Below, in pieces: positions 1-64,000 of a stretch of 64,000 nt of DNA. Source of the stretch: Candidatus Poribacteria bacterium (GTDB lineage: Bacteria > Poribacteria > WGA-4E > WGA-3G); assembly GCA_965220065.1 (NCBI GenBank), contig OZ244804.1, positions 5,434,346 through 5,498,345 of the forward strand, in the 5' to 3' direction. Under the pieces are notes generated by a model. It was not told where the DNA came from. It worked only from the letters and a program-made list of their open reading frames with translations, and did not search any database. The position numbers and the translations under genes are program-made. Position 1 is the stretch's first letter, and every line of letters starts with the position of its first letter.

Positions 1-1225
1 CATCCCCTCGATTACGGAAAATTTGATCCCGTTGGCGATAGGTCAGGATATCGTGTGTGTCGTCAATATTGTCGATGATATGCCCATTCGCGATAAATAT
101 ATCTCGCCAACCATCGTTATCCGCATCGAGGAAACCTGTCCCGAATCCGACGAACAAGTAACTCTCTTTACCGAGATGTGCTTCATAAATGACATCGGTA
201 AACGTCCCGTCACCGTTGTTCCGGTAAAGCGCATTGGTTTCGTAAGAGAGGTTCGTAACGAAAATATCGAACCATCCGTCGCCGTTGTAATCGTTAGTGG
301 CAACACCCATCCCTGCTTGTGCAACGCCGTTGAAACTGTAAGCACACCCAGCGAGCAACGAAATTTCACTGAACGTTCCATCACCGTTGTTATAAAAAAA
401 ATCGTTTCGGGTATCGTCGTTTGCGACATAAAGGTCTGGAACACCATCGTTGTTGAAATCTGCTGAAACGACCCCTAACCCTTTTCCGTGAAACAAGCCA
501 CTAATACCTCCAACACCAGCTTCCTGACTAACATCCGTAAAAGTGCCGTCGCCGTTATTGCGATAGAGCGTATCGGGCGCGCCTTCAAACAGGGAAGGAT
601 GACAATAAGTTTGAATCCCGTCTTCCCCGCATGGACGGTAGGGAACATCCGTTGAATACACAAGATAGTTAACAACGAATAGGTCGAGGTGTCCGTCCCG
701 GTTATAGTCGAGGAAACACGCGCTGCTGCTCCAACTTGGATCGCCGACACCTGCGTGAGCCGTGACATCCGTAAAAGCACCATCACCGTTGTTCCGGTAG
801 AGAACATTAACTCCGAAATTAGTCACGTAAAGATCTACATCGCCATCGTTGTCGTAATCGGCGCAAGCGGCACCTTGTCCGTAGTTGCCGCGGTTGCTCA
901 CGCCTGCAGTCGTTGTGATGTCAGTAAAGGTGTTATCGCCATTGTTACGGTAGAGCGCGCTGAGTGTTTCGTTCGTTGACGACGAATCCTTCCAATAACC
1001 GCTATTCACAAGGTAGATGTCCAAATCACCATCGTTGTCGGCGTCAAAGAAGGCACCACCGGCACCGAGGGTTTCGGGAAGATGATATGCACCTTCAGCA
1101 CCATTGATGTGCCTAAAGTCGATGCCCGCCTGCTCAGTCACGTCCACGAATTGGATCGCGGCAGATGACGCCGAGAATGGCACACATATAAAGAAAATGA
1201 GGAGGCATATTCTTTTACTCTTCAT
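1..1225 (-). CDS. CRTAC1/ASPIC-UnbV-type FG-GAP (VCBS) repeat secreted protein, 3'-truncated by the window edge
   Basis: Absent from the ORF track because it has no stop in the window. My translation from ATG 1225 gives MKSKRICLLIFFICVPFSASSAAIQFVDVTEQAGIDFRH...FDADNDGDLDIYLVN...LYRNNGDNTFTD...ADYDNDGDVDLYVTN...DYNRDGHLDLFVVN. The same frame holds at DFNNDG (443-460). The ATG overlaps the stop of the upstream gene. Confidence 0.9.
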   Translation of the reverse strand, partial: MKSKRICLLIFFICVPFSASSAAIQFVDVTEQAGIDFRHINGAEGAYHLPETLGAGGAFFDADNDGDLDIYLVNSGYWKDSSSTNETLSALYRNNGDNTFTDITTTAGVSNRGNYGQGAACADYDNDGDVDLYVTNFGVNVLYRNNGDGAFTDVTAHAGVGDPSWSSSACFLDYNRDGHLDLFVVNYLVYSTDVPYRPCGEDGIQTYCHPSLFEGAPDTLYRNNGDGTFTDVSQEAGVGGISGLFHGKGLGVVSADFNNDGVPDLYVANDDTRNDFFYNNGDGTFSEISLLAGCAYSFNGVAQAGMGVATNDYNGDGWFDIFVTNLSYETNALYRNNGDGTFTDVIYEAHLGKESYLFVGFGTGFLDADNDGWRDIFIANGHIIDNIDDTHDILTYRQRDQIFRNRGD

Positions 1226-2126
1226 AATCTTTGGCGAGACGGAATCCGATAAAACTGGTCCCGATCGCTGGATATTGCCCAATTCGTGTGGAGCACCTCG
1301 CTAACTTTTCTTTGTTCAACCACGATCCTCCTCTTACAACGCGACGACTCCCGACCACCGGTCCCTTTGGGTTTCGATCAGGACTCTGGCGATAGTAGGT
1401 TTCGGAATACCAGTCAGCCACCCATTCCCAGACGTTGCCCGCCATGTCGTGTGTCCCGTAAGGACTTGCCCCTGTAGGATAGGAACCAACGGGTTGCGGG
1501 TACGCCCCTGGTTGCCTCCATATATTCGCGTGGACGATTGCTCCCTTGATGCGTTGTGTGAAGGTATTTCCCCAGGGCCATCGCCTCGCGTTTGTTCCGC
1601 GTGCCGCTTTTTCCCACTCCGCTTCGGTAGGTAGCCGCATGCCTCGCCACGTCGCGTAGGCAACAGCAGAATGCCATGATACTCCTATGACAGGATGGTT
1701 CGGTTTCGTTTTTGCGATGCGGGGCCATGTCCCAAATTCACCGTCATAACTGATAGGCGTGTGTTCACTACCGACGCCACCCTTTTCAACCCAAAACCGA
1801 TAATATTCAGCGTTGGTTACCTCCGTCTTACCGATATAATAGGCGTCCAGATAGATTTTGTGTGTGGGTGCTTCATTCGGCAGATCGTCATCGCTGCCCA
1901 TCGTGAAATGCCCCGCGGGGATGAGACACATGTCGGGTCCAGTCCACGCACAGGGTGAAAACGCCAAGAGGGTATAAAGTAAGACGGTTATCAGTCTTCG
2001 GTTATCAGTTTTCGGTAAGAGGTTTTCATGTAATAACAAATCTCTTTTTAACCGATAACTGACAACTGACAGCTGACTACCATTTTCCTGATCGCTATTC
2101 TTTGGTTTTTGACGTGAGACGTTCAT
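1215..2126 (-). CDS. FGE-sulfatase (SUMF1/EgtB/PvdO) fold protein, secreted; true start uncertain (ATG 2126 or TTG ~2038)
   Basis: Motifs IPAGHFTMGS, YYIGKTEVTNAEY, HPVIGVSW, RLPTEAEWEKAARG, DMAGNVWEW, RGGSW, GFRLA. Lacks the catalytic cysteine pair of true FGE after RGGS. Confidence 0.9.
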   Translation of the reverse strand: MNVSRQKPKNSDQENGSQLSVVSYRLKRDLLLHENLLPKTDNRRLITVLLYTLLAFSPCAWTGPDMCLIPAGHFTMGSDDDLPNEAPTHKIYLDAYYIGKTEVTNAEYYRFWVEKGGVGSEHTPISYDGEFGTWPRIAKTKPNHPVIGVSWHSAVAYATWRGMRLPTEAEWEKAARGTNARRWPWGNTFTQRIKGAIVHANIWRQPGAYPQPVGSYPTGASPYGTHDMAGNVWEWVADWYSETYYRQSPDRNPKGPVVGSRRVVRGGSWLNKEKLARCSTRIGQYPAIGTSFIGFRLAKDYEE

Positions 2127-3258
2127 ATTCTTGATAGGTTTTCTCGGCTTCTGTGTGTGCCCCAGCGAGTTTGTAAGCTTTGGAGAGATTCAGATAGAAG
2201 CGCGGTTCGGAAGGCTTTAAATGAATGGCTGTTTGATATTGTTCAATCGCTTCGGAATACTGTTCTAACATCAAATACGCACCGGCAAGGCTGTTGCGGT
2301 ACGTTGCGACGTTCGGTTTCTGCTGAACCGCTTTCTGGTACATCGCCACCGTCTGTTTGTAGTTCTGCTGTTGAAAGTGAGCGTATCCGAGTGCTTCATA
2401 GCCGCGCGTCTCTTGGGGCGCGAGTGCGATGTAACGTTCCAAAGATTGCGTCGCCTCAGCATAGAGCTGACGCTTGAGTTGGGTTCTACCAAGTCGGTAC
2501 CATGCTTCGGCATTGGTAGGGTTTAGTCTCACAAATCGCTTGAGATGTGTCAGTTGCTCTTCCTCAACAGAGAGGACCTCAAAACGTCGTAAATTCCGTT
2601 GTGCTACTTCTGTTTCCCCAATACGCCGATACGCCGTGCCTAAAGAGAAATGTGCCTTCGCGTGGAAGGGATCGATTTCAATGAGTGCTTTGAAAGTATC
2701 AATAGCGGATTGCCACGCCTCCTGTTGAAGAAAGGCATTCCCAAGCGTGTAGCGTGCTGTCAGCGAAGTTGGATCAAGTTTAAGTGCGTGTTGAAGTTCA
2801 CGAATGGCAGTATCGGTGAGATTATCACGAAAATAAGCGAGACCTAATAGGGTCCGTGTGCGTGCATGATCGGGATCCATCGCTACTATTTTCTGTAGGA
2901 TCTGTGTTGCCTGCGCGGTGTCCCCCAAGTGAACGAGTAGCACATCACCCAACTCATAATACGCCTCAATATAGTTTTCATCTGAGATTGTTGCCTGTCG
3001 AAACGCCTCAGCGGCGGCATGGGTCTCCTCGGCACCTTTATAAATCAATCCCAAAACGCAGTGTGCATCCGCCAACGATGCATCCAGTGTGACGGCTTTC
3101 TCTAAAGCGGTTCTCGCTTCTGCCTGCTCTCCATGAGCGAGCGCGCGTAATCCGGCGTCATACAATCGTGCCGCCTCGGGATGGTATCTCGGTGCGGCAA
3201 TGGTAAGCGGGGTCAGGAACAGTAGCAGAAACGCGAAAACGCGTATGAATGGAGTCAT
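2095..3258 (-). CDS. Tetratricopeptide repeat protein with signal peptide
   Basis: Many 34-aa TPR-like units (AHCVLGLIY, AYYELGDVL, AHFSLGTAY, AWYRLGRTQ); hydrophobic N-terminus. Confidence 0.9.
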   Translation of the reverse strand: MTPFIRVFAFLLLFLTPLTIAAPRYHPEAARLYDAGLRALAHGEQAEARTALEKAVTLDASLADAHCVLGLIYKGAEETHAAAEAFRQATISDENYIEAYYELGDVLLVHLGDTAQATQILQKIVAMDPDHARTRTLLGLAYFRDNLTDTAIRELQHALKLDPTSLTARYTLGNAFLQQEAWQSAIDTFKALIEIDPFHAKAHFSLGTAYRRIGETEVAQRNLRRFEVLSVEEEQLTHLKRFVRLNPTNAEAWYRLGRTQLKRQLYAEATQSLERYIALAPQETRGYEALGYAHFQQQNYKQTVAMYQKAVQQKPNVATYRNSLAGAYLMLEQYSEAIEQYQTAIHLKPSEPRFYLNLSKAYKLAGAHTEAEKTYQEYERLTSKTKE

Positions 3259-3281
3259 AGGTGCGAGGGAATAGGAGTGTA

Positions 3282-3311
3282 TAGGGACGGAGTTTTAACC
3301 CCGTCCCCTAC
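3282..3311 (-). repeat. GTAG-type REP palindrome
   Basis: Minus strand reads GTAG-GGGACGGGG-TTAAAA-CTCCGTCCC; intergenic. Confidence 0.75.
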
Positions 3312-3328
3312 CACTATATCTAACTTAA

Positions 3329-4192
3329 TTATTGTGACTTAATGTCCGCCCATGTTGTCGTTAGCCGTCCTTGAGGGGTGACAGGCGTTAAACCGAGGAC
3401 AGAGCCAAGACCATCGTTCATTATGTTTTGAATGTCGGCTTGTTCGAGGGGCACATTGAAAATGCCGATCTCGTCCATTAATCCCAATGCCTGTCTCTGG
3501 GTGGGTGTTCCCCCTAAATGGACATCGACCCCTGAAACGCCAAAAACACCGGTTGTATCCTGATCAATGTCAACTTCACCGTCAATGTAGAGGATTTTCT
3601 TTGCGCCGTCGTAGGTGAAGGCGAGGTGATGCCACTGATCGTCGTTGACTGTGGTCGGTCCGAAGAGCCAGCGCGGATTCAACTCACGGCTACCGACTTC
3701 GACTTTCCCCTGATTTCCACCTCTGCCGGGACCAAAAACATTCAGGATATTATTCCAATTGGTCGTAAAAGCGATGACCATGTGATCGTCCGCGCAGCAT
3801 CCACCGTGCGGATCGCCTTTCCTTTGGATTTTTACCCATGCGACGCCGGTGAAGGCTTCAGCGGTGCTGTCTAAACTTTCTGAATTTGCGACATTGACGT
3901 AGTCATCGTCCCCGTCGAGACTGAGTGCTTTTCCCCACTTGCCGCCATCGGTAACTTCTGCGCCGTTTATAAGTTCGCCATCGTTTCCGTAGCTGCTGGA
4001 ATCGCTCACATCGCCATCGTCAAAGAGCCAGACACCGACAGCGGTCTCACTGTCGACTGCGGCGAAACTCTGCAGTGGGATGAATGCCAATCCCAGTACC
4101 GCCAAAACACATAGTATTGCCCAATTTTTTGTCATTTTTACAAATCTCCTGTGAAGAGGTTTTAGAATACATTTTTCCAATGAAGCCTGCAT
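3329..4192 (-). CDS. LamG-like jellyroll domain protein with C-terminal TW-x-x-I-K tag; likely start 4135
   Basis: Signal peptide, VGVWLFDDG, GKWGKALSLDG, WHHLAFTYDG, LYIDG, MDEIGIFN; ends LTPVTPQGRLTTTWADIKSQ. AGGAG RBS precedes ATG 4135. Confidence 0.9.
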   Translation of the reverse strand: MQASLEKCILKPLHRRFVKMTKNWAILCVLAVLGLAFIPLQSFAAVDSETAVGVWLFDDGDVSDSSSYGNDGELINGAEVTDGGKWGKALSLDGDDDYVNVANSESLDSTAEAFTGVAWVKIQRKGDPHGGCCADDHMVIAFTTNWNNILNVFGPGRGGNQGKVEVGSRELNPRWLFGPTTVNDDQWHHLAFTYDGAKKILYIDGEVDIDQDTTGVFGVSGVDVHLGGTPTQRQALGLMDEIGIFNVPLEQADIQNIMNDGLGSVLGLTPVTPQGRLTTTWADIKSQ

Positions 4193-4515
4193 CTCGCAGG
4201 CAAACTTAATTTAGCATGAGAACGGGGGAACGTCAAGCAAAATTTTTAGCCGCATTTATTCGTTGTGAGTGAGAGGATGTGTTTATATGCTGGTCTGAAT
4301 GGCGGATTGCCGCGGATGAAATGGATTGCACGGATTTTGGTAGGTGTGTATTTTGGTGCCTTCAATCTTATAAGGGCGATATGTGTGTAGAAAAATGTCT
4401 CAGGAAAGATAGAGCCCCAGCGAGACGACAGGTGTGTAGAAAAGGAGCCGCCCCAAAGGAATAGTTTTCTTTCCATTGGATTTTAGCGTTTGCGGGGCGA
4501 CAGGTGTACCGCAGC

Positions 4516-4737
4516 TTATGAAGTTTTTTGCTGGTGCTTGGCGATGATTTTTCCTAATGCTCTCAAGGCATCGTTAACGGATTTCGCGTCCGGAAACATC
4601 TCGGCTACGTCGTCGTCAAGCCGAACCAAATTTGTTCCTGCGTGGTATCGATCCGCATATTTGCCTCGAACCCCTTTACTGAAATCATATTCATCGAGCA
4701 TGTCTGGATCATGTTGATTGGACGTAGTTTGACTCAT
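4516..4737 (-). CDS. BrnA-like antitoxin family protein; no toxin gene adjacent
   Basis: DEYDFSKGVRGKYA...TNLVRLDDDVAEMFPDAKSVNDALRAL matches the small antitoxin-type family usually found after BrnT toxins (recalled pattern). Confidence 0.7.
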   Translation of the reverse strand: MSQTTSNQHDPDMLDEYDFSKGVRGKYADRYHAGTNLVRLDDDVAEMFPDAKSVNDALRALGKIIAKHQQKTS

Positions 4738-4844
4738 GTTGGAATTCCAATCCCACGTTTTTCACTGTACCTGCCTGTTAGATGCCGAGTTTTTAATTGT
4801 AGCATTACATATTTTATAGGAGCGGATCAGTTCATTGACACTAC

Positions 4845-4942
4845 ATTATAACAAATTCGCTCCTAGAAGTCAAGTTACGGAGTTCGATCGTTCGATCAGA
4901 TAGCGACTTTTCCTTGAATGTCGCTATCAAATGTGCTATAAT
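4845..4942. promoter_or_regulatory. Back-to-back sigma70 promoters with a 9-bp inverted repeat over the + strand -35
   Basis: Minus: TTGACT (4873-4868), 17 bp, TG-n-TATAAT (4850-4845). Plus: TTGAAT (4914-4919), 17 bp, TG-n-TATAAT (4937-4942). Perfect IR GATAGCGAC (4899-4907) / GTCGCTATC (4920-4928). Confidence 0.75.
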
Positions 4943-5002
4943 TTTAAGAAGTAAAATCAATGAAGTCCCTGACTACTCTAAAGTTTATTTTCAGCATTAG
5001 GG

Positions 5003-5216
5003 ATGAACAAAAAATCATATAGCAGATACCGGAAATCAAAACGATGGGCAAACCAAACGCTGAATGATTATGAAGCGGGCAGGCTACAAATGTCGGAAAT
5101 GTGGGAGACACGTTACACAGGTCCATCACGAAACCTATAAACGCGTCGGCAGAGAACGTCTCAGCGACCTAACGGCGGTGTGTGGATGCTGCCATAAACG
5201 GGTTCATGGAAAGTAG
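5003..5216 (+). pseudogene. Small HNH endonuclease, disrupted (+1 frameshift and TGA at 5061); 50-aa core ORF 5064-5216 still open
   Basis: 5003 frame: MNKKSYSRYRKSKRWA. 5064 frame: MIMKRAGYKCRKCGRHVTQVHHETYKRVGRERLSDLTAVCGCCHKRVHGK-stop, with CxxC...VHH.TY...G.E...DL...C..CH...H HNH signature. Confidence 0.8.
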
Positions 5217-5259
5217 CAGCTTCTCTTAACGTTGGAGGATAGTACTCTTATTAAGAACT

Positions 5260-6147
5260 ATGCCAAATAATTCTATCGTAAATTTAGGTGATTTATCGAA
5301 ACCAGCGGATACTTTAATCAAAAAAATATCAAAGGCAGTCGGCGGTATCTTCGCCCCTTCCCAAACCAAGCGAAGGGCCCAAGCAGAAGCAGAGGCAACA
5401 ATAATCAAAGCACATGCCGAGGCAGAAGCATCCAAAATCGAAACCCAAGCCGAGATTGAGCGTGCCCAATTGTGTCAACGAGCGGTGCACCGCTTCATTG
5501 CAGAAGAAACGCAACGTCAGAAAAACATGGAAGACATTACTGCTAAGGCGTTGCTTTATCTGAATGAAGAGGCAGAGCCCGATGGCATGAATAATGACTG
5601 GATTGCAAATTTCTTCGATAAATGTCGAATAGTCTCTGACAGTCAAATGCAAAGTTTATGGTCCCGCATTTTGGCTGGAGAGGCAAACATTCCTGACACC
5701 TACTCAAAACGGACAGTTAATTTCATTTCAGAACTCGACAAGAACGATGCTGAACTGTTTACTAAGTTATGTGGTTTTTGTTGGACGGTTGAAAATTTTA
5801 CGCCGTTAATATTTGATGAAAGCGCGGAAATTTACAAGAGACACGGAATTAACTTTGAGACCTTGAATCATCTTGACAGTATTGGATTTATTAATTTTCA
5901 AAATGTTAACAGTCTCATGTGGGATTTTTCAACCAAGAGTACTGTCGGGCATGCCGTGCATTATTATGGTACCTCGCTTTGCTTGGAGGTACCCGAGTAT
6001 CGTAACAGTGTTGAGGTTGGGAAGGTGCATCTCACAAAAATCGGACAGGAACTTGCGCCAATATGTGGAAGCCAACCTATGGATGGTTTCTATGAGTATG
6101 TGAAGGAGCAATGGAAGGAATATTTGCCTATAGATGCGAAAGATTAA
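5260..6147 (+). CDS. DUF2806 family protein
   Basis: Q.NMEDITAKAL...DWIANFFDKCRIVSDSQMQSLWSRILAGE...YSKRTVNFISELDKNDAELF pattern; AT-rich relative to flanks. Confidence 0.8.
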   Translation: MPNNSIVNLGDLSKPADTLIKKISKAVGGIFAPSQTKRRAQAEAEATIIKAHAEAEASKIETQAEIERAQLCQRAVHRFIAEETQRQKNMEDITAKALLYLNEEAEPDGMNNDWIANFFDKCRIVSDSQMQSLWSRILAGEANIPDTYSKRTVNFISELDKNDAELFTKLCGFCWTVENFTPLIFDESAEIYKRHGINFETLNHLDSIGFINFQNVNSLMWDFSTKSTVGHAVHYYGTSLCLEVPEYRNSVEVGKVHLTKIGQELAPICGSQPMDGFYEYVKEQWKEYLPIDAKD

Positions 6148-6219
6148 TGACGCAGATAATTCTATACACATGCTAAAGTAGTTATCGAGGGTCAGTTATT
6201 AGAAACCGTAGTCTCCTCT

Positions 6220-6242
6220 GTAGGAGCGAGCTGTGCTCGCGA
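6220..6242 (+). repeat. Cognate REP upstream of RAYT
   Basis: GTAG-GAGCGAGCTGTGCTCGCGA: GTAG foot plus imperfect palindrome. Confidence 0.9.
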
Positions 6243-6273
6243 TACCATATATAAAAACTTATAGGAATATGCA

Positions 6274-6747
6274 ATGAAACAAGCACCCAACCGAGGACAC
6301 CGGCAACTCCGAAAAGGCAGAACCTCAATACCCGGTGCCTACTATTACCTCACACTCGCCACACTTAACAAAAAACCACTGCTCGCAACTCCCAAAATCG
6401 CAGACATTATTTTTCAAGCCTTTGACTGGCTCGAAACGAAAGAACGGCTCAGATGGTTTTGTGGGGTTGTGATGCCAGATCATATCCACGCCGTTATCCA
6501 ACTCGGCAGTCAGCAAACATTTTCCAAGCTTATACAATCCTTCAAAAGCCACACAGCGAAACAGGTTAATGCTTGCTTGGGACGTAGCGGTTCGCTTTGG
6601 CAAGCTGCTTACTATGAACATGGTATTCGGCGGGATGAATCATTAAATACCATTATTCAATATTGCTATCAGAACCCAGTGCGGTCAGGATTGGTAAAGG
6701 CTGCGAGGGATTATCCGTTTTGGTGGTGTAAATTTGAGATGGAATGA
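6274..6747 (+). CDS. rayT: REP-associated tyrosine transposase (RAYT, Y1 HUH family)
   Basis: YYLT..T, HUH motif VVMPDHIHAV, FKSHT, LWQ..YYEH.IR, catalytic Y..QNPV..GLV; flanked by inverted REPs. Confidence 0.9.
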   Translation: MKQAPNRGHRQLRKGRTSIPGAYYYLTLATLNKKPLLATPKIADIIFQAFDWLETKERLRWFCGVVMPDHIHAVIQLGSQQTFSKLIQSFKSHTAKQVNACLGRSGSLWQAAYYEHGIRRDESLNTIIQYCYQNPVRSGLVKAARDYPFWWCKFEME

Positions 6748-6775
6748 GGAAGATCGCGAGTAACACAGCAAAAAA

Positions 6776-6903
6776 TCGCGAGCGCAGCTCGCTCCTACAG
6801 AGGAGGTATGTGGTCTACTTTATCGCGAGCACACAGAAATACCCAAGCAAAAACACTCGCTCCTACAGAAGAAGGGGGAATCGCGAGCACAGCTCGCTCC
6901 TAC
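6776..6903 (-). repeat. Cluster of three cognate REPs downstream of RAYT, one with an expanded loop
   Basis: TCGCGAGCGCAGCTCGCTCCTAC 6776-6798; TCGCGAGC-[~25 nt insert]-CTCGCTCCTAC 6823-6866; TCGCGAGCACAGCTCGCTCCTAC 6881-6903. All inverted relative to 6220. Confidence 0.9.
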
Positions 6904-6915
6904 AACAAGTGTTCC

Positions 6916-9900
6916 TTATAGTGCAGGCAAATTTTTGACGATCTCCACCGTCTTCAAACTGACGGTGATAACACGCCCAACCAAATCCACAATATACCGC
7001 GGTTGATCAGCACGGTTCGGGTCATTCACAATTCCGCTCCGTTTGTCCGTCTTGACGCGATACTGATCCACCACCCACTCCAACGCTGAACGGTTGCCGA
7101 GCCGATACTTATAAGCCTCCGCAGGGATACCATCCAGCGTCAGGAACTCGTTGTATTTCAACTGCGTCTTATCTTTGGACAACCGCATCTTCTCAACGCG
7201 CCAATCTATCGGTAGCCCCGGCGTTTCGACGTTTCTTAGTTTATCGTATTTCGGAACGGATTCATAGTTGACGTGGAGGTCTGCTAACTCTGCACCGGCA
7301 TTAGCGAATCCCCAGAAGTCTTCGGCGTAGGGGATATGCGGGAGGTCGCGCTTGAGGTTCATCTCGTATTTCTCACGGTAGACGGGATGGTGCAGGAGAC
7401 CGTAGTTATAGTGGAAGATGTCCCACTTGGTAATGGTGTCGTCGTTGTAGTGGGTTCGGTATTCCGTTAACGCCCAATCGGTGATGTTCTCCTGTCGGTT
7501 GGTGCCGTCCTCATCGTAGGTGTAGAAGGGGAAGGATTGTTGTGGATCGCCATAGAAGTTCACATCGGGAATACATTGATTCATCAACACAGCAAACTCT
7601 TTTCGACCGTAACCCCCAACACAGATCACGCGGTTCTCGTTTTCAGTCTCTGGTATCGGAAAAACAGTGGGGAACACAAAGACACTATGATTCATAATTC
7701 GGTCAAAGAATAGATGTGTCTTTGTAAAGGGGCGGTAGAGAGCATATCGGAGTTTCGCATCTGAAAACTCAGCTATTTTGCCACTCTTAAACTGCCGTTT
7801 TAAAGCAGAACTCCAGCTGATTTTAGTATTGTCATACTCTACGAAATTATCTATATTCACAATTGACTTCTCTGGTGTGACCAGCCACTTTAATACCTGG
7901 GCATTGTAGAATCCTATCGTTTTCTGAACATTTTCAGCAAGAGTATCTTGGTTAAAATTGTAGACCCACGCATCGCGATTTGTACCGACTCCGAGGCTAT
8001 AGGTTTTATAGATAACACCCACCGTTGCACCTTTTATTCCTTTTGCTTCCTTCGTTCCTATCGGAATAAAGGTATCAAACTCGGGGTGGAGTCCTTCGGT
8101 GAGCCATGTATATCGGCCGTCGGGTGTCATCTGCTGCCACTCAATGTTTTGGTAGTGCTCCTTTGAATTGAGGTAATTATATTTTTCTTCTTTGCGCCAA
8201 AATTCGTCAACGCGAGCATAGAAGATTTCGGCGGGTTTTGAATCTGTTCTAACTGTACTTCTCTTGACGAAAAAATTGACGCTTACTCCGACCTGAATCC
8301 CGAAGACATTATGTGTTGTCCCTGACAACTTCGTATTCTGGCGGACATTCCCACCCAGATCCAGAATGTAAATTGCGTCAAAATCCTGCGCGAGGTGTTT
8401 CCGCATTCCATCAAATGTTGTTCTGTCCAGAAAACCGCTGTTTGTCACAAATGCTACAACGCCTTCTTCTCCAATTCGCTTTGATGCCCACAGGATCGCC
8501 TTTACATACGGATCTGAGAGTGATCTTTTGTTCGTCGCCTTTGAGGCACGCGAATATGTTTTTCGCAACAAAGCATCCATCGTCTCATACGTCCGATTTT
8601 TATTATTGTCGTTCTCGTTCACCTGTCCCATGTTATAGGGTGGATTGCCAATAACGACGAACATGTCCGCCGCCTTCTGTCTCTCGACCCGTTCTGTGTT
8701 TTCCTGTGTGAAGAGTTCTCCTTGTTCCTGCTCCATTAACTCAAACGTGTCAGCAAGCGCGATCCCTTCAAACGGCAGATACATCCCCGTGCGTTGGTAG
8801 TACTCCTGTTCGATGTTCAGGCTGGCGATGTAGTAAGGTAGGAGCATCACTTCGTTGCAGTGGAGTTCGTGACGGTATTTTTCCTCTAATGCCGTGCCTC
8901 GGATGTCCCGCATGAGTCGGACGATGAAGTTGCCCGTTCCGACGAACGGATCGATAATATGCACGCCGGTATCCGACAGCGACCGACCGAACTCGGTCTC
9001 CAAGATATGTGCGACGCTGTTGACCATGAAATCGACAATCGGTTGCGGTGTGTAGACGATGCCGTGTGTGTCCGCTACGTCCTCAGAGAATCCCTGAAAG
9101 AATTTTTCATAAAAGGTGTTGAGGAAATGCTGTTTTTGGGAGAAGTCTTTACAGAGCGCGGCGGCTTGCTCAATGGCGACATAGAACCGATCTAACGGTT
9201 TAAGAAACTCCTCGCGACTGAACGCCTCTCGGATGAGTTCATCAACGACATTTTCAATTTCACGTGCGATGATATTTCGGCGGGTGAAAGCGGAGTTGTT
9301 AAAGACGGTACGGAAGATTCGCTCGGTGAGAATATGTTGGATGAGCATCTCTTCGACGGCATCCTGTGAAAGTTCCGGGTTGATGGAGGTGCGGCAGGTA
9401 TCGTAGAAGTCGGTGAACGCCTTTTTGAAGGCTGGATCGGTTTCGTGGCGTTGCTCAATGAGTGCCTTTAGTTTGTTTGCGAGGTCTGGTACGTGTTCTC
9501 TGAAATCGGAAACTGCGGTCTGCCAGTTGCCGAGCGCGGGTGGGACGTAGGCGAACAGGTATTGGAGTGCGGCAATCAGATTGACGGGTTCGGTGATGTC
9601 GAGATCCAGCACCTCCACACCGTTCTGATACAGGATAACGCGTTGTGGGGTTTGGAAGAGAATATTGTCAAATGGGTAACCCGCCTCGCGTTTTTCCTGC
9701 ACCGCTCTGGCAAGGTTGTCGTCTATATCCTTCGCTTCCCAATAGGCGAGCGGGAGTCCGATTTCGTCGATGATTGCGCCATCAATAACGATGCGATTTC
9801 CTTTTGGAGCGCGCATCGGGTATTGTGGGACGAGCGTAGCCTTCACCTGCTTCGCGCAGGCATGCAGGAGGGTTTCAAGCGGTGAGCTGACGGCACCTTC

Positions 9901-9990
9901 GTGTGTAATGTCGTGTTGTTCGTATTGCTGCAGCGTGGCATAGTAGTCTCGGACTGCTTTGTGGTTGGGTTTGAGATTGAGTTTCGGCAT
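6916..9990 (-). CDS. Single-chain Type IIG / Type ISP-like restriction-modification enzyme (nuclease + N6-adenine MTase + specificity domain, no helicase)
   Basis: N-terminal D...WEAKD PD-(D/E)XK-like motif; GIVYTP; motif I IIDPFVGTGNF; motif IV GNPPY; C-terminal LYRPF, DIFHYNYGLLH, RSALEWVVDQY typical of ISP C-terminal regions. No DEAD/helicase motifs seen. Confidence 0.85.
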   Translation of the reverse strand: MPKLNLKPNHKAVRDYYATLQQYEQHDITHEGAVSSPLETLLHACAKQVKATLVPQYPMRAPKGNRIVIDGAIIDEIGLPLAYWEAKDIDDNLARAVQEKREAGYPFDNILFQTPQRVILYQNGVEVLDLDITEPVNLIAALQYLFAYVPPALGNWQTAVSDFREHVPDLANKLKALIEQRHETDPAFKKAFTDFYDTCRTSINPELSQDAVEEMLIQHILTERIFRTVFNNSAFTRRNIIAREIENVVDELIREAFSREEFLKPLDRFYVAIEQAAALCKDFSQKQHFLNTFYEKFFQGFSEDVADTHGIVYTPQPIVDFMVNSVAHILETEFGRSLSDTGVHIIDPFVGTGNFIVRLMRDIRGTALEEKYRHELHCNEVMLLPYYIASLNIEQEYYQRTGMYLPFEGIALADTFELMEQEQGELFTQENTERVERQKAADMFVVIGNPPYNMGQVNENDNNKNRTYETMDALLRKTYSRASKATNKRSLSDPYVKAILWASKRIGEEGVVAFVTNSGFLDRTTFDGMRKHLAQDFDAIYILDLGGNVRQNTKLSGTTHNVFGIQVGVSVNFFVKRSTVRTDSKPAEIFYARVDEFWRKEEKYNYLNSKEHYQNIEWQQMTPDGRYTWLTEGLHPEFDTFIPIGTKEAKGIKGATVGVIYKTYSLGVGTNRDAWVYNFNQDTLAENVQKTIGFYNAQVLKWLVTPEKSIVNIDNFVEYDNTKISWSSALKRQFKSGKIAEFSDAKLRYALYRPFTKTHLFFDRIMNHSVFVFPTVFPIPETENENRVICVGGYGRKEFAVLMNQCIPDVNFYGDPQQSFPFYTYDEDGTNRQENITDWALTEYRTHYNDDTITKWDIFHYNYGLLHHPVYREKYEMNLKRDLPHIPYAEDFWGFANAGAELADLHVNYESVPKYDKLRNVETPGLPIDWRVEKMRLSKDKTQLKYNEFLTLDGIPAEAYKYRLGNRSALEWVVDQYRVKTDKRSGIVNDPNRADQPRYIVDLVGRVITVSLKTVEIVKNLPAL

Positions 9991-10233
9991 AGCGGTATGA
10001 TAGCAGGTTTTGGGGGTAAGTCAAGAAAATTTGGGATAGAGATACATAGATATGTTATACTAAAATTATACAAGTTGCCACCGTTTTATCAATATAACAG
10101 CCCTTAGCAAGTTTCAATCCTTAACGTTCAAGTTTTGAATCCCCAATTGGGTTGGAAAGTTGGAAGTTTGGAAGTTCGGAATCCAGACACGCTCTAAATA
10201 CTTTTCACCCATCATTTCAATAAGGAGAAAACG

Positions 10234-10605
10234 ATGGACGGGAAACATCTACCTTGGCATTTACCCCTAACGGATTGGTTTCTGGGAGCGACGGTTTTAT
10301 TCGCAACCACTGGTACTGTCATCCTGTGTCGGTTTTTATGGCGGAAGTGGCAAGCGTGGCGGATTCAAAAGTTTCTCGAACAACGGTCAGCACTTGCATC
10401 ACCGGGCGCGCAGCAACTGACGGCACACGATAAGCAGGTCCTAACGAGGAGGATTCGGCGATCGGGAAACGAGCGTTTGGAGAAAAGTTTCGCCTTCCAA
10501 GGGAATGCCGATCTCTACGTTGCTATTGGGCTTTTCGGACTGGCAATGATCGCTTTGGTCTTGTTAGCCCTCGCAAATGGCTTCCACAAACACGGACTCC
10601 CATAA
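10234..10605 (+). CDS. Hypothetical membrane protein (two hydrophobic segments)
   Basis: AAGGAG RBS, two TM-like stretches, followed by an intrinsic terminator. Confidence 0.7.
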   Translation: MDGKHLPWHLPLTDWFLGATVLFATTGTVILCRFLWRKWQAWRIQKFLEQRSALASPGAQQLTAHDKQVLTRRIRRSGNERLEKSFAFQGNADLYVAIGLFGLAMIALVLLALANGFHKHGLP

Positions 10606-10622
10606 ATTCGGATATAATCGGC

Positions 10623-10652
10623 GCGGTGGACTTTGGTTCACCGCTTTTTTTT
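10623..10652 (+). terminator. Rho-independent terminator
   Basis: GCGGTGGAC-TTTG-GTTCACCGC followed by T8. Confidence 0.85.
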
Positions 10653-10941
10653 CAATGACCCTTAATTAAATCCGTGATAAAATATCAAACGAATGATTAA
10701 GACGAGTTAAGCGTCTACCCACGCATCACACATTTAACTCCATGTATCGTCACGAATTCTCAATTCCCAACTCTCTTCATAATTAAACGTGAGTTTAAAA
10801 ATAAAAATTGAAGCGTCTCGTAGGGAATCAACGCTGAATGCGCGTGTGGCATTCAACGGGGTTGAACGGAAATCTACTAAAAATCGTACACAGTACAGAG
10901 TGCTCAAGAGAGCAGAGAAACCTGGAATCACCAAAAACCGA

Positions 10942-11077
10942 GTGAAACCCAACACATTGTGATACTGACACGGTTTAGAATGTTGGGTTTCGCTAAACCT
11001 ATCTACCCGAAGGGTTCATTGAAGAACAGAACGCTGTGTATAGCGAAAATGCGCTTGTGGCTTTACCGCTCAACCCC
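10942..11077. repeat. Degenerate REP/REPIN-like repeats (GTTGGGTTTCG...CTCAACCC family)
   Basis: GTGAAACCCAACA 10942-10954, TGTTGGGTTTCGC 10981-10993, GCTCAACCC ~11068; related to 16703 and 19589. Confidence 0.6.
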
Positions 11078-11190
11078 GGTTCATGCTTTATAGCATGAAT
11101 ACCGTTGATTCCCTACATCCATATTTGTATTTCATTTTCCAACCCACGTTTAATTATCAAGTTCACGTTAATTAAAGGAGGTTATGACAG

Positions 11191-11949
11191 ATGAAAACCG
11201 TAATGGCGAATTTAATGCTTGTGATTTTAATCGTCCTGAGTCTAATGTTTGCGGACACGAGCACTGCAGAATTTGATATAGAAACCGTTACTGGAATGTG
11301 GCTTTTTGATGAGGGCAAGGGGAATACAGCAACGGATTCCTCTGAAAATGGTAACGATGGGAAATTCGAGAACGATCCGAAATGGACAAAGGACGGTAAG
11401 TTCGGATCGGCATTGGAGTTTGATGGAAACGAGAGTAAGGGACATGTCGTTGTCGGTGATTTGGGCTTGTCTGGGGAGGTTACATTGGTTTTGTGGGCAA
11501 ATCCGAGGGATGCCGCCAATGATGATCGGTTGATATCGAACATCAACGGTCCCACAAACCCGGCTTTCACGACTCGGTACCAAGGTGAAACCGTTGAAAT
11601 CTGGAGTAGCGCGTGGAAACCTGTCATCCCTAAATTTGATGACAATAAATGGGGACACTATGCGTTTGTATTCGATGGTGAGGGAAATGTAACGGGCTAT
11701 TACAATGGCGAAGAAGGTGAGACAGTTGCCGATACTTATACGTTTACGGAGATCGGTATTGGTGCGAATTTTTTAGATCAATGGGGTCAATATTTTTCCG
11801 GTCTCTTTGATGAAATTGCGTTTTTCAGTGTCGCGCTCACTAAAGATGACATCGAAGTCGTCATGACAAAAGGGCTGAAATCCGCGTTGGCTGTTTATCC
11901 CGCTGGGAAATTAACCACCATGTGGGGAAATATAAAAACCCACCCGTAA
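11191..11949 (+). CDS. LamG-like jellyroll domain protein with C-terminal TMWGNIK tag
   Basis: Signal peptide, GMWLFDEG.G..A.DSS.NGNDG, GKFGSALEFDG, WGHYAFVFDG, FDEIAFF; ends LAVYPAGKLTTMWGNIKTHP. Confidence 0.9.
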   Translation: MKTVMANLMLVILIVLSLMFADTSTAEFDIETVTGMWLFDEGKGNTATDSSENGNDGKFENDPKWTKDGKFGSALEFDGNESKGHVVVGDLGLSGEVTLVLWANPRDAANDDRLISNINGPTNPAFTTRYQGETVEIWSSAWKPVIPKFDDNKWGHYAFVFDGEGNVTGYYNGEEGETVADTYTFTEIGIGANFLDQWGQYFSGLFDEIAFFSVALTKDDIEVVMTKGLKSALAVYPAGKLTTMWGNIKTHP

Positions 11950-12044
11950 GGAATTGATAACTTCTCACTGCGGCGGAGTGTCTAATTAATTCTAAACTTT
12001 ACTATAAACACCCTTGGAGACCTCAAAATATATGGAGAATACGC

Positions 12045-16884: not shown

Positions 16885-17937
16885 GTGATAGTGCAAAATT
16901 TCTTTCCCGAGACCTTTGTTCGCATTTTCACGTTGGTGCTGCTGTGTGTAAACGTTTCCCCGCTTTTCGCAGAAGCCCCGACAACGCCCAAAATCCTGTT
17001 CACCTCCGCACATGATGGCAACCGAGAAATATACATCATGAATCCAGATGGTTCTGAACAGGTGAACCTGACCAAACATCCCGCAACTGACCAAGAAGCC
17101 GTCTGGTCCCCAACAGGTGAGCAGATTCTCTTCGTCTCCGATCGTCGTAGGACGCATGTCCGAGACCTTTATCTGATGGATTCTAATGGATCCAACGTCC
17201 GGCGCGTCTTCAAGAAGAAAATAGAAGGTTGGAGAACAGACCCGACCTGGTCACCCGACGGTAAACATATCGCTTACCGGCAGTGGGATCCGATCGGAGG
17301 CGGGGCAAGTGGGATGTACATTTTGACCTTAGGCGAACAAGAACCTGAATTCATCGGGAAGTTTTCTTCTCCAGTATGGTCGCCCGACGGGACAACAATC
17401 GCCTGCGGGACAGCGAGCCCAGGGCTAACATGGATTATCTTAATGGACGCTCGGACACGAAAGCATAAGCGTCTTCTACCCAAGAAAGCACTCCCTTGGC
17501 AGACCACTCCGTCTTGGTCAGCAACAAGCGATAAACTCGCTTTTTCTGGAAACAACCATCCCTTGCCTGGCATCAATGGTTTGGTGCTGAAGGAAGCCAG
17601 GGCACTGCACAACGCATGGCGGGATAAACAGACAATCTTCATCGTCAACCGAGACGGCACAGGGCTCAAACAAGTTCTTGCGGAAGACGGTTCCGATGCA
17701 TGGGCGCCCGCGTTATCGCCAAGTGGAGAGGAAGTCCTGTATACACAGGAAATTAACCAGCGGAATCAGGTTTTCAAAGTTGATGTAAATAGCGGAATTC
17801 GGACACAGTTGACGCACAATGGGATGCCCAGATTTGGAAATTTTGGCGGAGATTGGTTTGACCCGTCGTATGCATTGCCGGTTTCACCACAACCGCAGTT
17901 GCTCACCACAACATGGGGGGAAGTGAAAAAGAAGTAA
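16885..17937 (+). CDS. TolB-like PD40 beta-propeller protein with C-terminal TTWGEVK tag
   Basis: ILFTS..DGNREIYIMNPDG; repeated WSPTG/WSPDG; ends LPVSPQPQLLTTTWGEVKKK. Confidence 0.9.
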   Translation: MIVQNFFPETFVRIFTLVLLCVNVSPLFAEAPTTPKILFTSAHDGNREIYIMNPDGSEQVNLTKHPATDQEAVWSPTGEQILFVSDRRRTHVRDLYLMDSNGSNVRRVFKKKIEGWRTDPTWSPDGKHIAYRQWDPIGGGASGMYILTLGEQEPEFIGKFSSPVWSPDGTTIACGTASPGLTWIILMDARTRKHKRLLPKKALPWQTTPSWSATSDKLAFSGNNHPLPGINGLVLKEARALHNAWRDKQTIFIVNRDGTGLKQVLAEDGSDAWAPALSPSGEEVLYTQEINQRNQVFKVDVNSGIRTQLTHNGMPRFGNFGGDWFDPSYALPVSPQPQLLTTTWGEVKKK

Positions 17938-42773: not shown

Positions 42774-44687
42774 ATGAGCGTGAGAGCGATTCTGATCGGT
42801 TTGGCACTCGTCATTATCCAGACAGCAATTACCCCCTATAACGACTACTATCTCCAAGGAACAGATATCGCCGGAAATCATTTTCCTTTGGGGACAGTGT
42901 TCACACTGATTTTTCTCACCCTGGTCGTCAATCCCATTCTGAAGAAAGTATTTCCCCGAGCGGTGCTAAATCCAGGGGAATTGATGATAGTCTGGGTTAT
43001 GATGGTCATCAGTTCAGCGATCCCATCGAAGGGAATGGTCGGGTATTTACTTCCTTATCTGGCGGCACCCGTCTATTTCGCTACACCTGAGAATGAGTGG
43101 GCAGAAACGCTTCATCCGCACTTCCCTGAATGGTTAATTGTGTGGGATGAGCATGCCGTCACCGATTTCTATGAAGGAGAATCAATTGTCCCTTGGGGAC
43201 TCTGGGCAAAGCCGCTCGTTGTTTGGACAGTTTTTATCTTATTGTTCTATGCGCTGACGATCTGTGTATCGATTGTGTTAAGGAAACAGTGGGTTGAGCG
43301 CGAAAGGTTCATCTTCCCGCTGGTTACTGTGCCTGTGGAGATGGTTCAGCAAACCTCAATGCACGCGGGTCTGAACAGTTTGTTCAGGAATCGGCTCGTG
43401 TGGGTCGGTTTTGGAATCGCTGCCTTTTTTCATCTACTCAACGGACTGCACGAGTATTTCCCTGCCCTTCCGCGCATTCCGAATCGGTATGATTTGTACA
43501 CCCCATTCACGGAGCGTCCATGGATTGTGATGGGCTGGTGGCCCCAATTTCGGTTCTTTCTTTATTTTTCGGTTATCGGTATAACCTACTTTCTCGCCAT
43601 GGAGGTGTCTTTCAGTTGCTGGTTTTTCTTCCTATTCTTCAAGTTACAGTACATCATCATCAACGCCTTCGCGATCCCTATCAGCCCATGGATCTCTGCC
43701 AGAGGACAGACAATGGCGGCATACGTGGTTATGGTGCTTGCCTTTCTACTTAACAGTCGAACCCATATCACAGATCTCCTGAAACGAACGTTTCTGGAGT
43801 CTTCTGCTTCCACAACGATCGACGATTCTGATGAAGTATTGCCGTATAGATGGGCAGTTCTGGGAACAGTGTTTAGTTTTCTGTTGCTTGCGGGTCTCTG
43901 CGTCTACGCGGGGATGTCGCTTTGGGTTGCTTGTAGCATTCTTGTGCTGTTCCTGATTGCTTCTACGGCATTATCGTGGATGGTTGTCAACGGAGGAATG
44001 CTACTGATCCAAGCACCGATGTATCCCGTAGAATACTTTGAAATTATTGCGGGTTCGAGAATCATTAACGCAAACAGTTTGGCACTCTTAGGGTTCCAGC
44101 GGGTAATGATGCGCGACTGGGGCGGCATTTTGATGCCGAGCGTTCTGCACGGATTTAAAGCGGCGGATCCGGTCGGACTAAATCGAAGAAGCGTCCTCGG
44201 CGCAATGGTGCTGGCTATTGTTGTTGCTATCGGTGTTTCCTATGCGGCATCGTTGCCTTTGATTTATGAAAAAGGTGGCTTAAATCTGCAGAGGGGTCCC
44301 TTCGTCGGATCACCGAGATATTTTAATCATATGGTTTCACTGATTCAGTATCCGAAAGACCCGAAATTAGGAGAGGCGTACAGTATGCTTTTGGGAGCTG
44401 GAATCACTGGCTTTCTACTGATTATGCAGCGTCAATTTATGTGGTGGCAACTTCACCCGATTGGATATGTGATGGGTGCGGTTTATTCCTCCTATTTCCT
44501 CTGGTCTTGTATATGTATTGGCTGGTTTTTGAAGTATCTGGCACTGAAATCAGGTGGGATTGGATCCTATCGAAGACTTCGACCATTGTTTATGGGGTTG
44601 GTTATCGGTGAGTTTGGTATTGTGGGGTTTTGGATGATCATCGGGATGGTTACAGGCGTGAATTACCAAGGTGCCTTACCCGGATAA
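42774..44687 (+). CDS. DUF6785/DUF6784-type polytopic membrane protein
   Basis: [43 protein letters not shown]...YR..RP.F.GLV.GE; clear paralogue of 61100-63031. Confidence 0.75.
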
Positions 44688-44794
44688 TTTTTTCTACTTG
44701 TTTCTTGAGCGTCCGTGTACACACTCATACCCAACGCTCGTTAAAAAATACAAGGCACTCAAGGGTTTCCGTTCAGATTGCTAAGGAGGTAACC

Positions 44795-45769
44795 ATGAAG
44801 TTGACGTTTCCTAAAAGAATCACAAAGTTGCTCTGTTTACAGAAGTGTTTTTTAGCAGTAATGACAGGTCTTTTCATCGTATTGGCAGCTCAGATACCAG
44901 CGGCGGATATGAAGATCGCCTTTACTTCAAACCGAGATGGTAATTCTGAAATCTATGTGATGAATGCCAATGGAACAAACCCTGTCAGACTTACTGATAA
45001 CCCTGCAGCAGACAGCAGTCCCACTTGGTCTCCAGACGGTAAGCGCATCGCTTTTACCTCGAACCCAAAGGGCGTTTACGATATCTATGCAATAAATGCT
45101 GATGGGACAAACCGTATCAATCTTACGCGAAACTCGTCAGGCGACTTTGGTGCCGACTGGTCTCCGGACGGAACGCAAATCGTCTACGGCTCAAACATAG
45201 GGAACGAAGAGATCTATATCATGGACGCCGATGGTGCTAATCCGAGGAATCTCTCACGGCATGCAAAAGCAGATCGTCACCCAGATTGGTCTCCGGATGG
45301 AACAAAAATAGTGTTTACCTCAGACCGGGACGGTGATCGTGAAATCTATGTGGTAAAAGCCGGAGGGGGTAGACCGATTCAACTGACGAAAAACCTGGAG
45401 CCGTGGGACAGGGCTGCTGATTGGTCTCCAGATGGTAAGCGTATTGCCTTCACTTCAGGCAGAGATGGTGATTTTGAAATCTATGTGATGGATGCCGATG
45501 GTTCTAACACCATTCAATTGACTCACAACCTATTCGCATTAGATGATAACGCTGCCTGGTCTCCGGATGGGACAAAAATCGCTTTCAGTTCTGACCGAGA
45601 GGGTGAGTTCGACATCTATGTAATGGATGACGACGGTTCGAATCCTGTCAATCTCACTCATAATCAGCCTGGAAGGAATAGAGGTCCCGCTTGGCAGCCG
45701 ATCCCCTTAGCGGTTTCGCCACAAGAAAAGTTGGTGACGTTGTGGGGAAATCTCAAAAGCAAGCAGTAA
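44795..45769 (+). CDS. TolB-like PD40 beta-propeller protein with C-terminal TLWGNLK tag
   Basis: Five to six [17 protein letters not shown]...LT...WSPDG repeats; AAGGAGG RBS before ATG 44795; ends [20 protein letters not shown]. Confidence 0.92.
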
Positions 45770-63031: not shown

Positions 63032-63044
63032 TTGAAATGTCCAA

Positions 63045-64000
63045 TTAGTCGAGGGGCGTGTCTGCCTCAAGCACTCGGCGTGCCGCAGAGGAGAGCCTTC
63101 CTTCCGCCGCGGCCCGTTCCACCCAATGGGCAGGTATGCCATTTGTCCATTTAGCAGGGCTTGCGTCGGGGTCTGGTGTCCGATACGCTATCAGCAAGCC
63201 CCATCGGGTCGGGGTTCCTGGCTTGCGATGTCCGACATGATGTGGCATGTGATGGGGAAACGAGACCATGCTCCCGGGCGGTAGCGAGAAGCGTACCATT
63301 TCCAACGGCTTGCCGGTGAAGGCGTGGATCTTTCCCTTCAGCCAGCCCGCTTTCATAGCAGCGTCATCATCGGGTCGCTCGGTGCTCCATTTGTACGGAA
63401 TGCGGTAGAGATGCGCACCCGGGATGACCCCAAGTTCCCCACCCTCCTCGATGGTTGCCCCTTCCGGGTAGCAGAGTGTCCGAATACACTGCCGTTGCAG
63501 ATACTCGGTGGTAAGGGCGTCTCCGGTACCGATAGGATCTTCGACCTCGTACTGCCCCTGCCGATACTGGTGCGCATGCCACCGCCGCCCTATTGATCCC
63601 GGTGTCCGGTTGAGCATATTGCAGTGGTCGAGTATGAAGCGGTCACCGAAAAGTTTGGTGAATAGTTCCATCATCTGAGGATGGGCGGTGGCGACATCCC
63701 TGATGAAGTCGTCGTATCCAATCGAGAAATGTTCCGGCATGACTCCCTGCGACTTGTACCCGCGTGTCACCAACGCAGGACCTGGACCGAACAGTCCGTG
63801 GTCGCGCATGTATTGATTCAGTCCTCGTGGCATGAAGCGCATCTGCTCTGAGCCACCGCAACACGTCTCCAAAAATTCCGGGGTGATTTGCTCCGGCAAC
63901 GGCGGCTGTAGCCCCCGGCCCGCAAAGTCGATGGCAGCCCAGTCGGTGTCCATGACGATCTCATCGTTCATCTGTTGTAACTTCTGCAAGCTCTCCGTCC
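63045..64000 (-). CDS. PhyH-like Fe(II)/2OG-fold dioxygenase with HxH motif; 5' end probably beyond the window
   Basis: WHAH, GGELGVIPGAH, LPPGSMVSFPHHMPH, RWGLLIAY; frame stays open to the window edge. Confidence 0.75.
   Translation of the reverse strand, partial: TESLQKLQQMNDEIVMDTDWAAIDFAGRGLQPPLPEQITPEFLETCCGGSEQMRFMPRGLNQYMRDHGLFGPGPALVTRGYKSQGVMPEHFSIGYDDFIRDVATAHPQMMELFTKLFGDRFILDHCNMLNRTPGSIGRRWHAHQYRQGQYEVEDPIGTGDALTTEYLQRQCIRTLCYPEGATIEEGGELGVIPGAHLYRIPYKWSTERPDDDAAMKAGWLKGKIHAFTGKPLEMVRFSLPPGSMVSFPHHMPHHVGHRKPGTPTRWGLLIAYRTPDPDASPAKWTNGIPAHWVERAAAEGRLSSAARRVLEADTPLD

Follow-up and report, generated by a model that had tools for sequence, protein, structure and literature searches.

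Why do exported proteins of unrelated fold end in the same short peptide? The question is raised by the 64-kb window, i.e., the whole stretch of DNA analyzed here, which comes from a Candidatus Poribacteria MAG and in which four ORFs, two encoding LamG proteins and two encoding PD40 propellers, carry a common C-terminal peptide of about 20 residues. The sequence-only reading had described this peptide as a tag shared by four unrelated secreted proteins, and translation reproduced the quoted letters at all four C-termini. The tails had also been located correctly, while the ranges given for them included the stop codon and the first gene lies on the minus strand. According to translation and a regex search, the tail of LamG protein 1, LTPVTPQGRLTTTWADIKSQ, is encoded at 3332..3391 (minus strand; stop codon 3329-3331), that of LamG protein 2, LAVYPAGKLTTMWGNIKTHP, at 11887..11946 (plus strand), and that of PD40 propeller 1, LPVSPQPQLLTTTWGEVKKK, at 17875..17934 (plus strand). 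The tail of PD40 propeller 2, found in the same way at 45707..45766 (plus strand), is the most divergent of the four. Together, the tails follow the pattern V-x-P-x2-3-K/R-L-T-T-x-W-G/A-x-I/V/L-K, with two to three residues after the lysine. When the whole 64-kb window was searched in six frames with L.T.W[GA].[ILV]K, four sites were obtained, each two to three residues ahead of the stop of a long ORF, and no match was present beyond the four carrier C-termini. By chance, 0.005 matches are expected on average (maximum 1 in 200 composition-preserving shuffles of the window).

The four carriers share an export signal and the tail, and two folds lie in between. Pfam assigned Laminin_G_3 to the first two and PD40 to the last two, as had been proposed. 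Carrier gene 1 (3329..4135, minus strand, within the ORF 3329-4192) encodes a signal peptide, a Laminin_G_3 domain (PF13385, E 4.9e-19) and the tail, and its true start is likely the ATG at 4135 (MTKNWAIL...). Carrier gene 2 (11191..11949, plus strand) encodes 252 aa of the same layout (PF13385, E 1.3e-15). The product of carrier gene 3 (16885..17937, plus strand) comprises a signal peptide, a PD40 beta-propeller (PF07676, E 9.4e-19) and the tail in 350 aa, and is TolB-like according to NCBIfam. Carrier gene 4 (44795..45769, plus strand, within the ORF 44630-45769; likely true start ATG 44795, MKLTFPK...) encodes a signal peptide, six PD40 repeats (PF07676, E 2.7e-55) and the tail. Signal-peptide-like N-terminal segments were present in four of four carriers, in agreement with the sequence-only reading, and a lipobox Cys was absent from all four. 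The tail marks a subset of the window's proteins, since the LamG-GH67 protein, the FG-GAP proteins and the TPR protein end without it.

Carrier gene 1 heads a conserved operon composed of the LamG carrier, a secreted TPR protein (2095-3258) and an FGE-sulfatase-domain protein (1215-2126), and this trio recurs in locus L073 and about eight other loci. Orthologues of LamG protein 1 at L005, L006 and L010-L012 end in the identical tail. For PD40 propeller 1, a homologue search with the last 40 residues revealed conservation of the tail in at least 120 orthologues; as the list contains orthologues only, it bears on conservation and not on modularity.

The spread of the tail was determined with a pattern derived from the four window tails, which was run against 185,579 species genomes. 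It gave 499 matches, 102 of which were confirmed, and among the best 80 of these 102 every named genome belonged to Poribacteria. Likewise, all named orthologues of the window PD40 protein and of its DUF6785 neighbor are from Candidatus Poribacteria. Genome loci and window together provided 124 distinct tail-coding sequences, all of them 1-8 residues from the stop, and in the genome loci tail genes often occur in two to three neighboring genes. The resulting consensus is [LAT]-[AP]-V-[ESDY]-P-x-[GDN]-K-L-[TA]-T-T-W-[GA]-x-[IL]-K-[ST], with 0-9, usually two to three, residues from the lysine to the stop; the residues after the lysine are variable, and polar or basic. No variation occurs at L, W and the final K, and hardly any at V and the middle threonine (T2, 122/124). 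V-E-P is found in about half of the tails (E in 63 and P in 104 of 124).

A profile was then built from 106 tails (20 match positions) without any carrier sequence. Searched against 1.84 billion representative proteins, it matched 275 protein clusters at E<=1e-3. Among the best 150 of the 275 matches, 149 end 0-15 residues from the C-terminus, and 102 do so at two to three residues. The lone non-terminal match, a tape-measure-like protein with five tandem VTKTWGEIKS repeats, was taken to be a partial chance resemblance. With the exact pattern, at least 120 stretches were retrieved from metagenome contigs (JGI and others), whose names indicate groundwater ('Hain' contigs) and other non-sponge metagenomes. 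Among the metagenome matches listed, 153 of 154 tails lie 0-14 residues from the stop, and contigs from groundwater, lakes and sediment show the same core. In all, about 430 tails were tallied, and these are terminal apart from isolated cases (124/124, 149/150 and 153/154). For one member of a cluster, the recorded source is the sponge Geodia barretti, presumably owing to symbiont DNA in the host assembly. Viral contigs yielded no tail, either with the profile or with the exact pattern KLTTTWGx[hydrophobic]K. A padded 700-aa query ending in two consensus tails returned nine word-sharing candidates, none at E<=10, which hints that long carriers are rare. Extrapolation from four tails per 64 kb to the 5.4-Mb genome gives, as a rough guess, about 100 or more carriers per genome.

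The tail appears to be undescribed in public resources. No NCBIfam or Pfam model matched the tails in scans of whole proteins (E<=1 and E<=0.1) or of isolated tails (E<=10), and a PDB sequence search with the tail profile returned chance matches only, with no solved structure of related sequence. The literature searched (the motif, secretion or sorting in Poribacteria, DUF6785 and metaproteomics) contained no description of the motif or of an equivalent poribacterial signal.

The tail might be no protein tag at all, being either an integral terminal strand of the folds that precede it or a DNA or RNA element (terminator, repeat or recombination site) lying over the 3' ends of the genes. REP-like repeats located just downstream of several carrier genes (e.g., 11943-12024) would fit an element of this kind. 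However, synonymous positions are fully scrambled: at the conserved tail residues, all six Leu codons, all four Thr and all four Gly codons and both Lys codons are used. Selection therefore acts on the protein and not on the DNA, and a conserved DNA or RNA element or a recent gene conversion was ruled out. In addition, the tail follows many unrelated folds. After trimming of the tail, the carriers of the genome loci fell into ten BLAST-unrelated groups, and among these carriers and the profile hits at least 12 unrelated Pfam families were represented (Laminin_G_3, PD40, DUF4960, 3keto-disac_hyd/DUF1080, CBM9, LTD, Kelch, BNR/YCF48-like, esterase, DUF4440, Big_5 and cohesin), which bears out the modularity claimed for the four window proteins. 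Laminin_G_3 proteins of about 250-300 aa form the majority, the LTD (lamin-tail-domain) carrier is a giant of more than 1000 aa, and at least two carrier groups are without a Pfam match. In many of these unrelated folded domains, the tail directly follows the last structural element.

AlphaFold2 models, computed with family alignments, place the tail outside both window folds (mean pLDDT of 81.5 for the LamG model and 87.0 for the PD40 propeller). In LamG protein 2, residue 234 is the last of the sandwich with its closing helices, and the pLDDT is below 50 for residues 236-252. In PD40 propeller 1, the last blade strand spans residues 319-325, and residues 331-350 have a pLDDT of 46-54. No domain follows the LamG or the PD40 fold in these models, and the tail as an integral fold strand was rejected, as it lies outside both predicted folds at a pLDDT below 55. 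With codon, AlphaFold2 and carrier-family evidence all against it, the proposal that the tail is no tag was refuted, and we give it next to no chance. An origin of the tail as a PD40 blade fragment (PF07676, hairpin W-S-P-D-G-K-x-I-A-F) was also rejected: hhalign gave a probability of 1.5%, with only x-x-V-x-P-x-G-K aligning between the tail profile and the PD40 repeats, and the tail was without a Pfam match.

The carriers are also marked for export. A signal-peptide-like h-region was found in 98 of 104 complete carriers (94%), compared with 76 of 204 other ORFs at the same loci; pairing with Sec-type signal peptides is the rule, and the carriers are not cytoplasmic proteins. We regard it as highly likely that the tail is a portable C-terminal tag which is selected at the protein level, lies outside the folds of its carriers and is borne by exported proteins. 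The sequence-only reading had gone further and interpreted the tag as a sorting signal. The modular, terminal, exported and helix-free character of the tail stood, while the sorting role is drawn from this anatomy and from analogy.

How such a tag might work is a question of what reads it. We lean, with modest confidence, towards a helix-free linear tag that is read in trans by a conserved envelope component and anchors or sorts Sec-exported binding modules. A role in sorting, anchoring or docking is suggested by the anatomy of the tail and by analogy with known signals. The four window tails are copies of a phylum-wide C-terminal linear motif, which we term the TTWG tail. The tail would probably be disordered on its own and be recognized in trans by one conserved poribacterial envelope component. 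The low-confidence AlphaFold2 models draw its core as a helix and not as a strand (residues 240-248 in the LamG and 343-349 in the PD40 protein). Judged from its letters, the tail looks more like a hairpin, with a P-x-G-K turn, a Thr-rich stretch and alternate conserved residues in L-T-W-x-K. This turn and the alternate-residue face suggest binding as a beta-hairpin or edge strand, which is a guess in view of the helix drawn by AlphaFold2, and its place so close to the terminus points to a need for a free end. Small glycan-binding and propeller modules may in this way be retained, displayed or handed over on the cell envelope. The tail would then serve its carriers as lipid anchors, PEP-CTERM or T9SS CTDs serve proteins of other phyla.

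A dedicated reader could be encoded near the tail genes. All ORFs of about 200 loci (1.16 Mb) were clustered, and neither a universal neighbor nor a recurrent peptidase was detected; no reader, protease or translocon was found among the neighbors at these loci. The neighbor genes track the carrier subfamily; besides the operon partners of carrier gene 1, their products include CarboxypepD_reg and DUF362 proteins, sulfatases, PhyH dioxygenases, GFO/IDH/MocA oxidoreductases, an SSF symporter and enolase-superfamily enzymes, their common theme being the utilization of glycans and sulfated glycans. A polytopic DUF6785/DUF6784 membrane protein was considered as the reader. It is encoded at 42774-44687, directly upstream of carrier gene 4, and besides the window it adjoins tail genes of different families at 12 of about 200 loci. 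Three paralogue loci were fetched independently; in all three, no tail gene is present within 5 kb and the gene lies in a GHL10-sulfatase-DUF6785 operon. The window probably also contains a second DUF6785 paralogue (61100-63142). The candidate was rejected on account of the three loci and the probable two paralogues in the window, and it is read as a permease of glycan-utilization (catabolic) loci.

The closest relatives in layout are PEP-CTERM/exosortase signals (TIGR02595, PF07589) and LPXTG, GlyGly-CTERM and PGF-CTERM signals, which like the tail measure about 20-25 aa, are strictly C-terminal and portable, occur on Sec-exported cargo of many families and are lineage-restricted. In PEP-CTERM phyla, too, the typical cargo includes small LamG/lectin-like proteins. 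A small Pro motif opens both the tail (V-E-P) and PEP-CTERM (V-P-E-P), and both often end basic. In contrast to PEP-CTERM, with its TM helix of about 20 residues, the tail continues with a polar stretch of only 12 residues from P to the final K (x-G-K-L-T-T-T-W-G-x-I-K), as the sequence-only reading had recognized in stating that there is no TM helix. Isolated tails gave no match to TIGR02595 or PF07589 at E<=10, and the 124 tails contain neither an LPXTG-type pentapeptide nor a hydrophobic helix. An outer-membrane beta-signal was excluded, since the last residues of the tails vary and are polar or basic, in place of a terminal Phe or Trp, and also because the carriers are soluble LamG or propeller folds and not beta-barrels.

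Sortase, exosortase and PorU remove or exchange their C-terminal signals. By analogy, the tail might be a processing site or C-terminal propeptide, cut for instance near V-E-P by a periplasmic or outer-membrane peptidase or transpeptidase, and then removed or exchanged for a link to glycan, lipid or peptidoglycan. Such processing would agree with the strictly terminal position of the tail and with V-E-P, spacer and basic end, a layout loosely reminiscent of PEP-CTERM. Yet no TM helix would hold the substrate at a membrane-embedded enzyme, no sorting-signal model matched at E<=10, and no peptidase recurs beside tail genes. Moreover, the best-conserved part of the tail lies downstream of V-E-P, which would be odd if this part were discarded. 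We consider processing of this kind rather unlikely.

T9SS type A CTDs (TIGR04183/PF18962) resemble the tail in being C-terminal, free of a TM helix and borne by signal-peptide-bearing proteins, often glycan-binding or propeller cargo. This corresponds to the signal-peptide-like N-termini of 98/104 carriers and to the terminal position in 149/150 and 153/154 cases. However, type A CTDs fold into beta-sandwiches of 70-100 aa, while the tail measures about 17 aa, is a linear motif and shows no sequence similarity to them; no HMM match was obtained for the tail of about 20 residues, and no folded domain was predicted by AlphaFold2. T9SS-type CTDs were described in Poribacteria, with no Por structural genes in the single-cell genomes (Kamke et al. 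2014, PMC3909097). We found such a CTD at the poribacterial genome locus L029 as well, and tail and CTD are normally located on different proteins. A single groundwater contig, L130, combines the two: a signal peptide and body are followed by a complete tail, …GKLTTTWGRIKEDK, which keeps its usual three-residue extension, and directly by a T9SS-type CTD, LFQNYPNPFNPETWIPYQL…, closely resembling that of L029. The tandem order shows that tail and CTD are not simply interchangeable. For the processing proposal, it is of note that the L130 tail adjoins precisely the site at which a T9SS-type CTD would be cleaved off. Removal of the CTD at the usual boundary would re-expose a normal tail end; this one case therefore suggests that the tail acts after, and separately from, export.

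Docking of the cellulosome type offers another comparison, and dockerin-cohesin docking is abundant in Poribacteria. Like the tail, dockerins are C-terminal and would link secreted proteins of various kinds to one partner without a covalent bond. They differ in forming a Ca2+-binding, duplicated EF-hand-like fold of 60-70 aa, while the tail has one third of that length and lacks such repeats; dockerins also tolerate internal positions, whereas the tail is terminal. Pfam detected no PF00404 match on any carrier scanned, and the tail spans 17-20 aa. One carrier, P0256 (179 aa), consists of a signal peptide, a single cohesin and the tail, with nothing else, which is the layout of an anchoring scaffoldin. 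By the logic of cellulosomes, a protein with a single cohesin has a use only when its opposite end holds it at the cell, and P0256 may therefore be taken as a hint, by analogy, at an anchoring role of the tail.

The cohesin-only carrier could also speak for self-association, in which strand exchange joins the tails of different carriers, or a tail and an acceptor groove on another carrier, and builds a mixed lectin/propeller lattice that needs no receptor. Tandem arrays of two to three carriers from different families (L027, L053, L054, L064, L077 and L079) and the beta-strand-like alternation in the conserved face are in line with such a lattice. On the other hand, the carriers have no other common element that could serve as acceptor, the folds predicted by AlphaFold2 are complete and leave no open edge for a donor strand, and many tail genes stand alone (e.g., L083). 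Self-association appears improbable to us, and a separate envelope component as binding partner remains our preferred reading.

A partner could be dispensable if the tail inserted into the membrane by itself. C-terminal amphipathic helices anchor MinD and FtsA in the cytoplasm, and the anchors of PBP5 and PBP6 of E. coli, like the tail, are short, C-terminal and free of a TM helix and follow a Sec-exported soluble domain, with no dedicated machinery needed. In such a receptor-independent anchor, the core KLTTTWGxIK would form a short amphipathic helix in the plane of the membrane leaflet, L, W and I sharing one face between flanking Lys residues. The low-confidence helix drawn by AlphaFold2 (LamG residues 240-248, PD40 residues 343-349), the spacing of the invariant L, W and K at i, i+4 and i+8, the terminal position and the lack of dedicated neighbor genes would suit a self-sufficient anchor. 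However, the hydrophobic residues number only three, and Thr-Thr-Thr and Gly are poor helix formers. The anchors of PBP5 and PBP6 have a higher hydrophobicity and little sequence conservation, while the tail is rich in Thr and Gly and nearly invariant across the phylum. Amphipathic anchors conserve a pattern and not a sequence, whereas the tail keeps T2 (122/124), W, K, G/A and V-x-P phylum-wide. This sequence specificity points to a protein partner, and we judge a membrane anchor of this type to be unlikely.

A more far-reaching proposal is put forward tentatively, as possible but doubtful. The TTWG tail could be the address label of an unrecognized sorting or surface-display pathway of the diderm envelope, with a dedicated candidate receptor or transpeptidase that would handle about 100 lectin-like, propeller and cohesin modules binding sponge or environmental glycans. 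In that case, the tail would be the first C-terminal signal for sorting or anchoring in bacteria to belong neither to the tripartite signals with a TM helix nor to the folded domains. Earlier short C-terminal sorting signals each pointed the way to a machine of their own, namely sortase, exosortase, rhombosortase and the T9SS, and a tag that is conserved, portable, free of a helix and present on many exported proteins of a genome implies another machine or a common docking partner. The phylum Poribacteria is uncultivated and dominant in many sponge microbiomes. The cargo of the tail consists mostly of carbohydrate-binding modules and propellers, plus a cohesin, and is encoded at loci with sulfatase, glycosidase and permease genes; capture of host or environmental glycans by these bacteria is probably organized by the tag.

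The tag also provides a one-line rule by which many 'hypothetical' poribacterial proteins can be annotated as envelope-targeted, and the tail peptide can serve as bait for finding the reader. The common tryptic peptide LTTTWGxIK is usable as a proteomic marker; one sponge metaproteome reported only six poribacterial proteins. At the RNA level, a 798-nt contig from a sponge metatranscriptome spans 11205-12002, including the tail and the stop of carrier gene 2, and represents a relative with 95% identity, although DNA carry-over in such libraries is possible. The REP-like repeats at 11943-12024 showed very high depth in RNA contigs.

A single protein carried the TTWG tail, the roughly 20-residue peptide that ends four secreted proteins of the window, at a non-terminal position, the only such case among about 430 tails tallied. 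In this secreted 599-aa protein, encoded on a Hainich groundwater metagenome contig (L130:667-2463, minus strand), the complete tail (…GKLTTTWGRIKEDK) was followed directly by a 90-aa T9SS-type C-terminal domain (CTD; LFQNYPNPFNPETWIPYQL…), which closely resembled the poribacterial CTD of locus L029. Among the best 150 of 275 matches, the tail profile gave one internal match, namely the 692-aa tape-measure-like protein P0190, with VPWVTKTWGEIKSAF in each of its five perfect tandem 40-residue repeats; P0190 is probably unrelated to the TTWG tag. A minimal carrier, P0256 (179 aa; L083:10001-10540), consisted of a signal peptide and the tail with a single cohesin domain between them, and its gene was solitary among housekeeping genes.

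The first LamG-tail gene of the window opened a three-gene operon (1215-4135, minus strand) in the order LamG-tail protein, TPR protein, which bore a signal peptide, and FGE-sulfatase-domain protein. This operon was conserved in about eight poribacterial loci, e.g., L073:2281-5213 (plus strand), and in locus L144 a caspase (Peptidase_C14) domain was fused to the FGE-sulfatase domain. In other Poribacteria (loci L005, L006 and L010-L012), the two LamG-tail genes were divergent and adjacent, with 0.5-1.5 kb between them; in the window they were parted by about 7 kb (4193-11190) encoding DUF2806, a 157-aa ORF and a 1024-aa Type ISP restriction-modification gene, which looks like an inserted defence islet. 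In sponge metatranscriptome assemblies, the summed contig depth over positions 11943-12024, directly past the second LamG stop codon, was 400-1300x, and there were many loose contig ends on either side; depth and ends fit a multi-copy REP-like repeat.

Genes for DUF6785/DUF6784 polytopic membrane proteins repeatedly adjoined tail genes of differing families, both in the window (42774-44687, plus strand) and in loci L026, L067, L113, L119, L134, L140, L146, L151, L173, L183, L184 and L201. Positions 61100-63142 (minus strand) probably encode a second window copy, as judged from similarity at the C-terminus. A literature search for these proteins returned no paper. Elsewhere, their genes lay in GHL10-sulfatase-oxidoreductase operons without tail genes, and they are probably permeases of glycan-utilisation loci, from a family not yet characterised.
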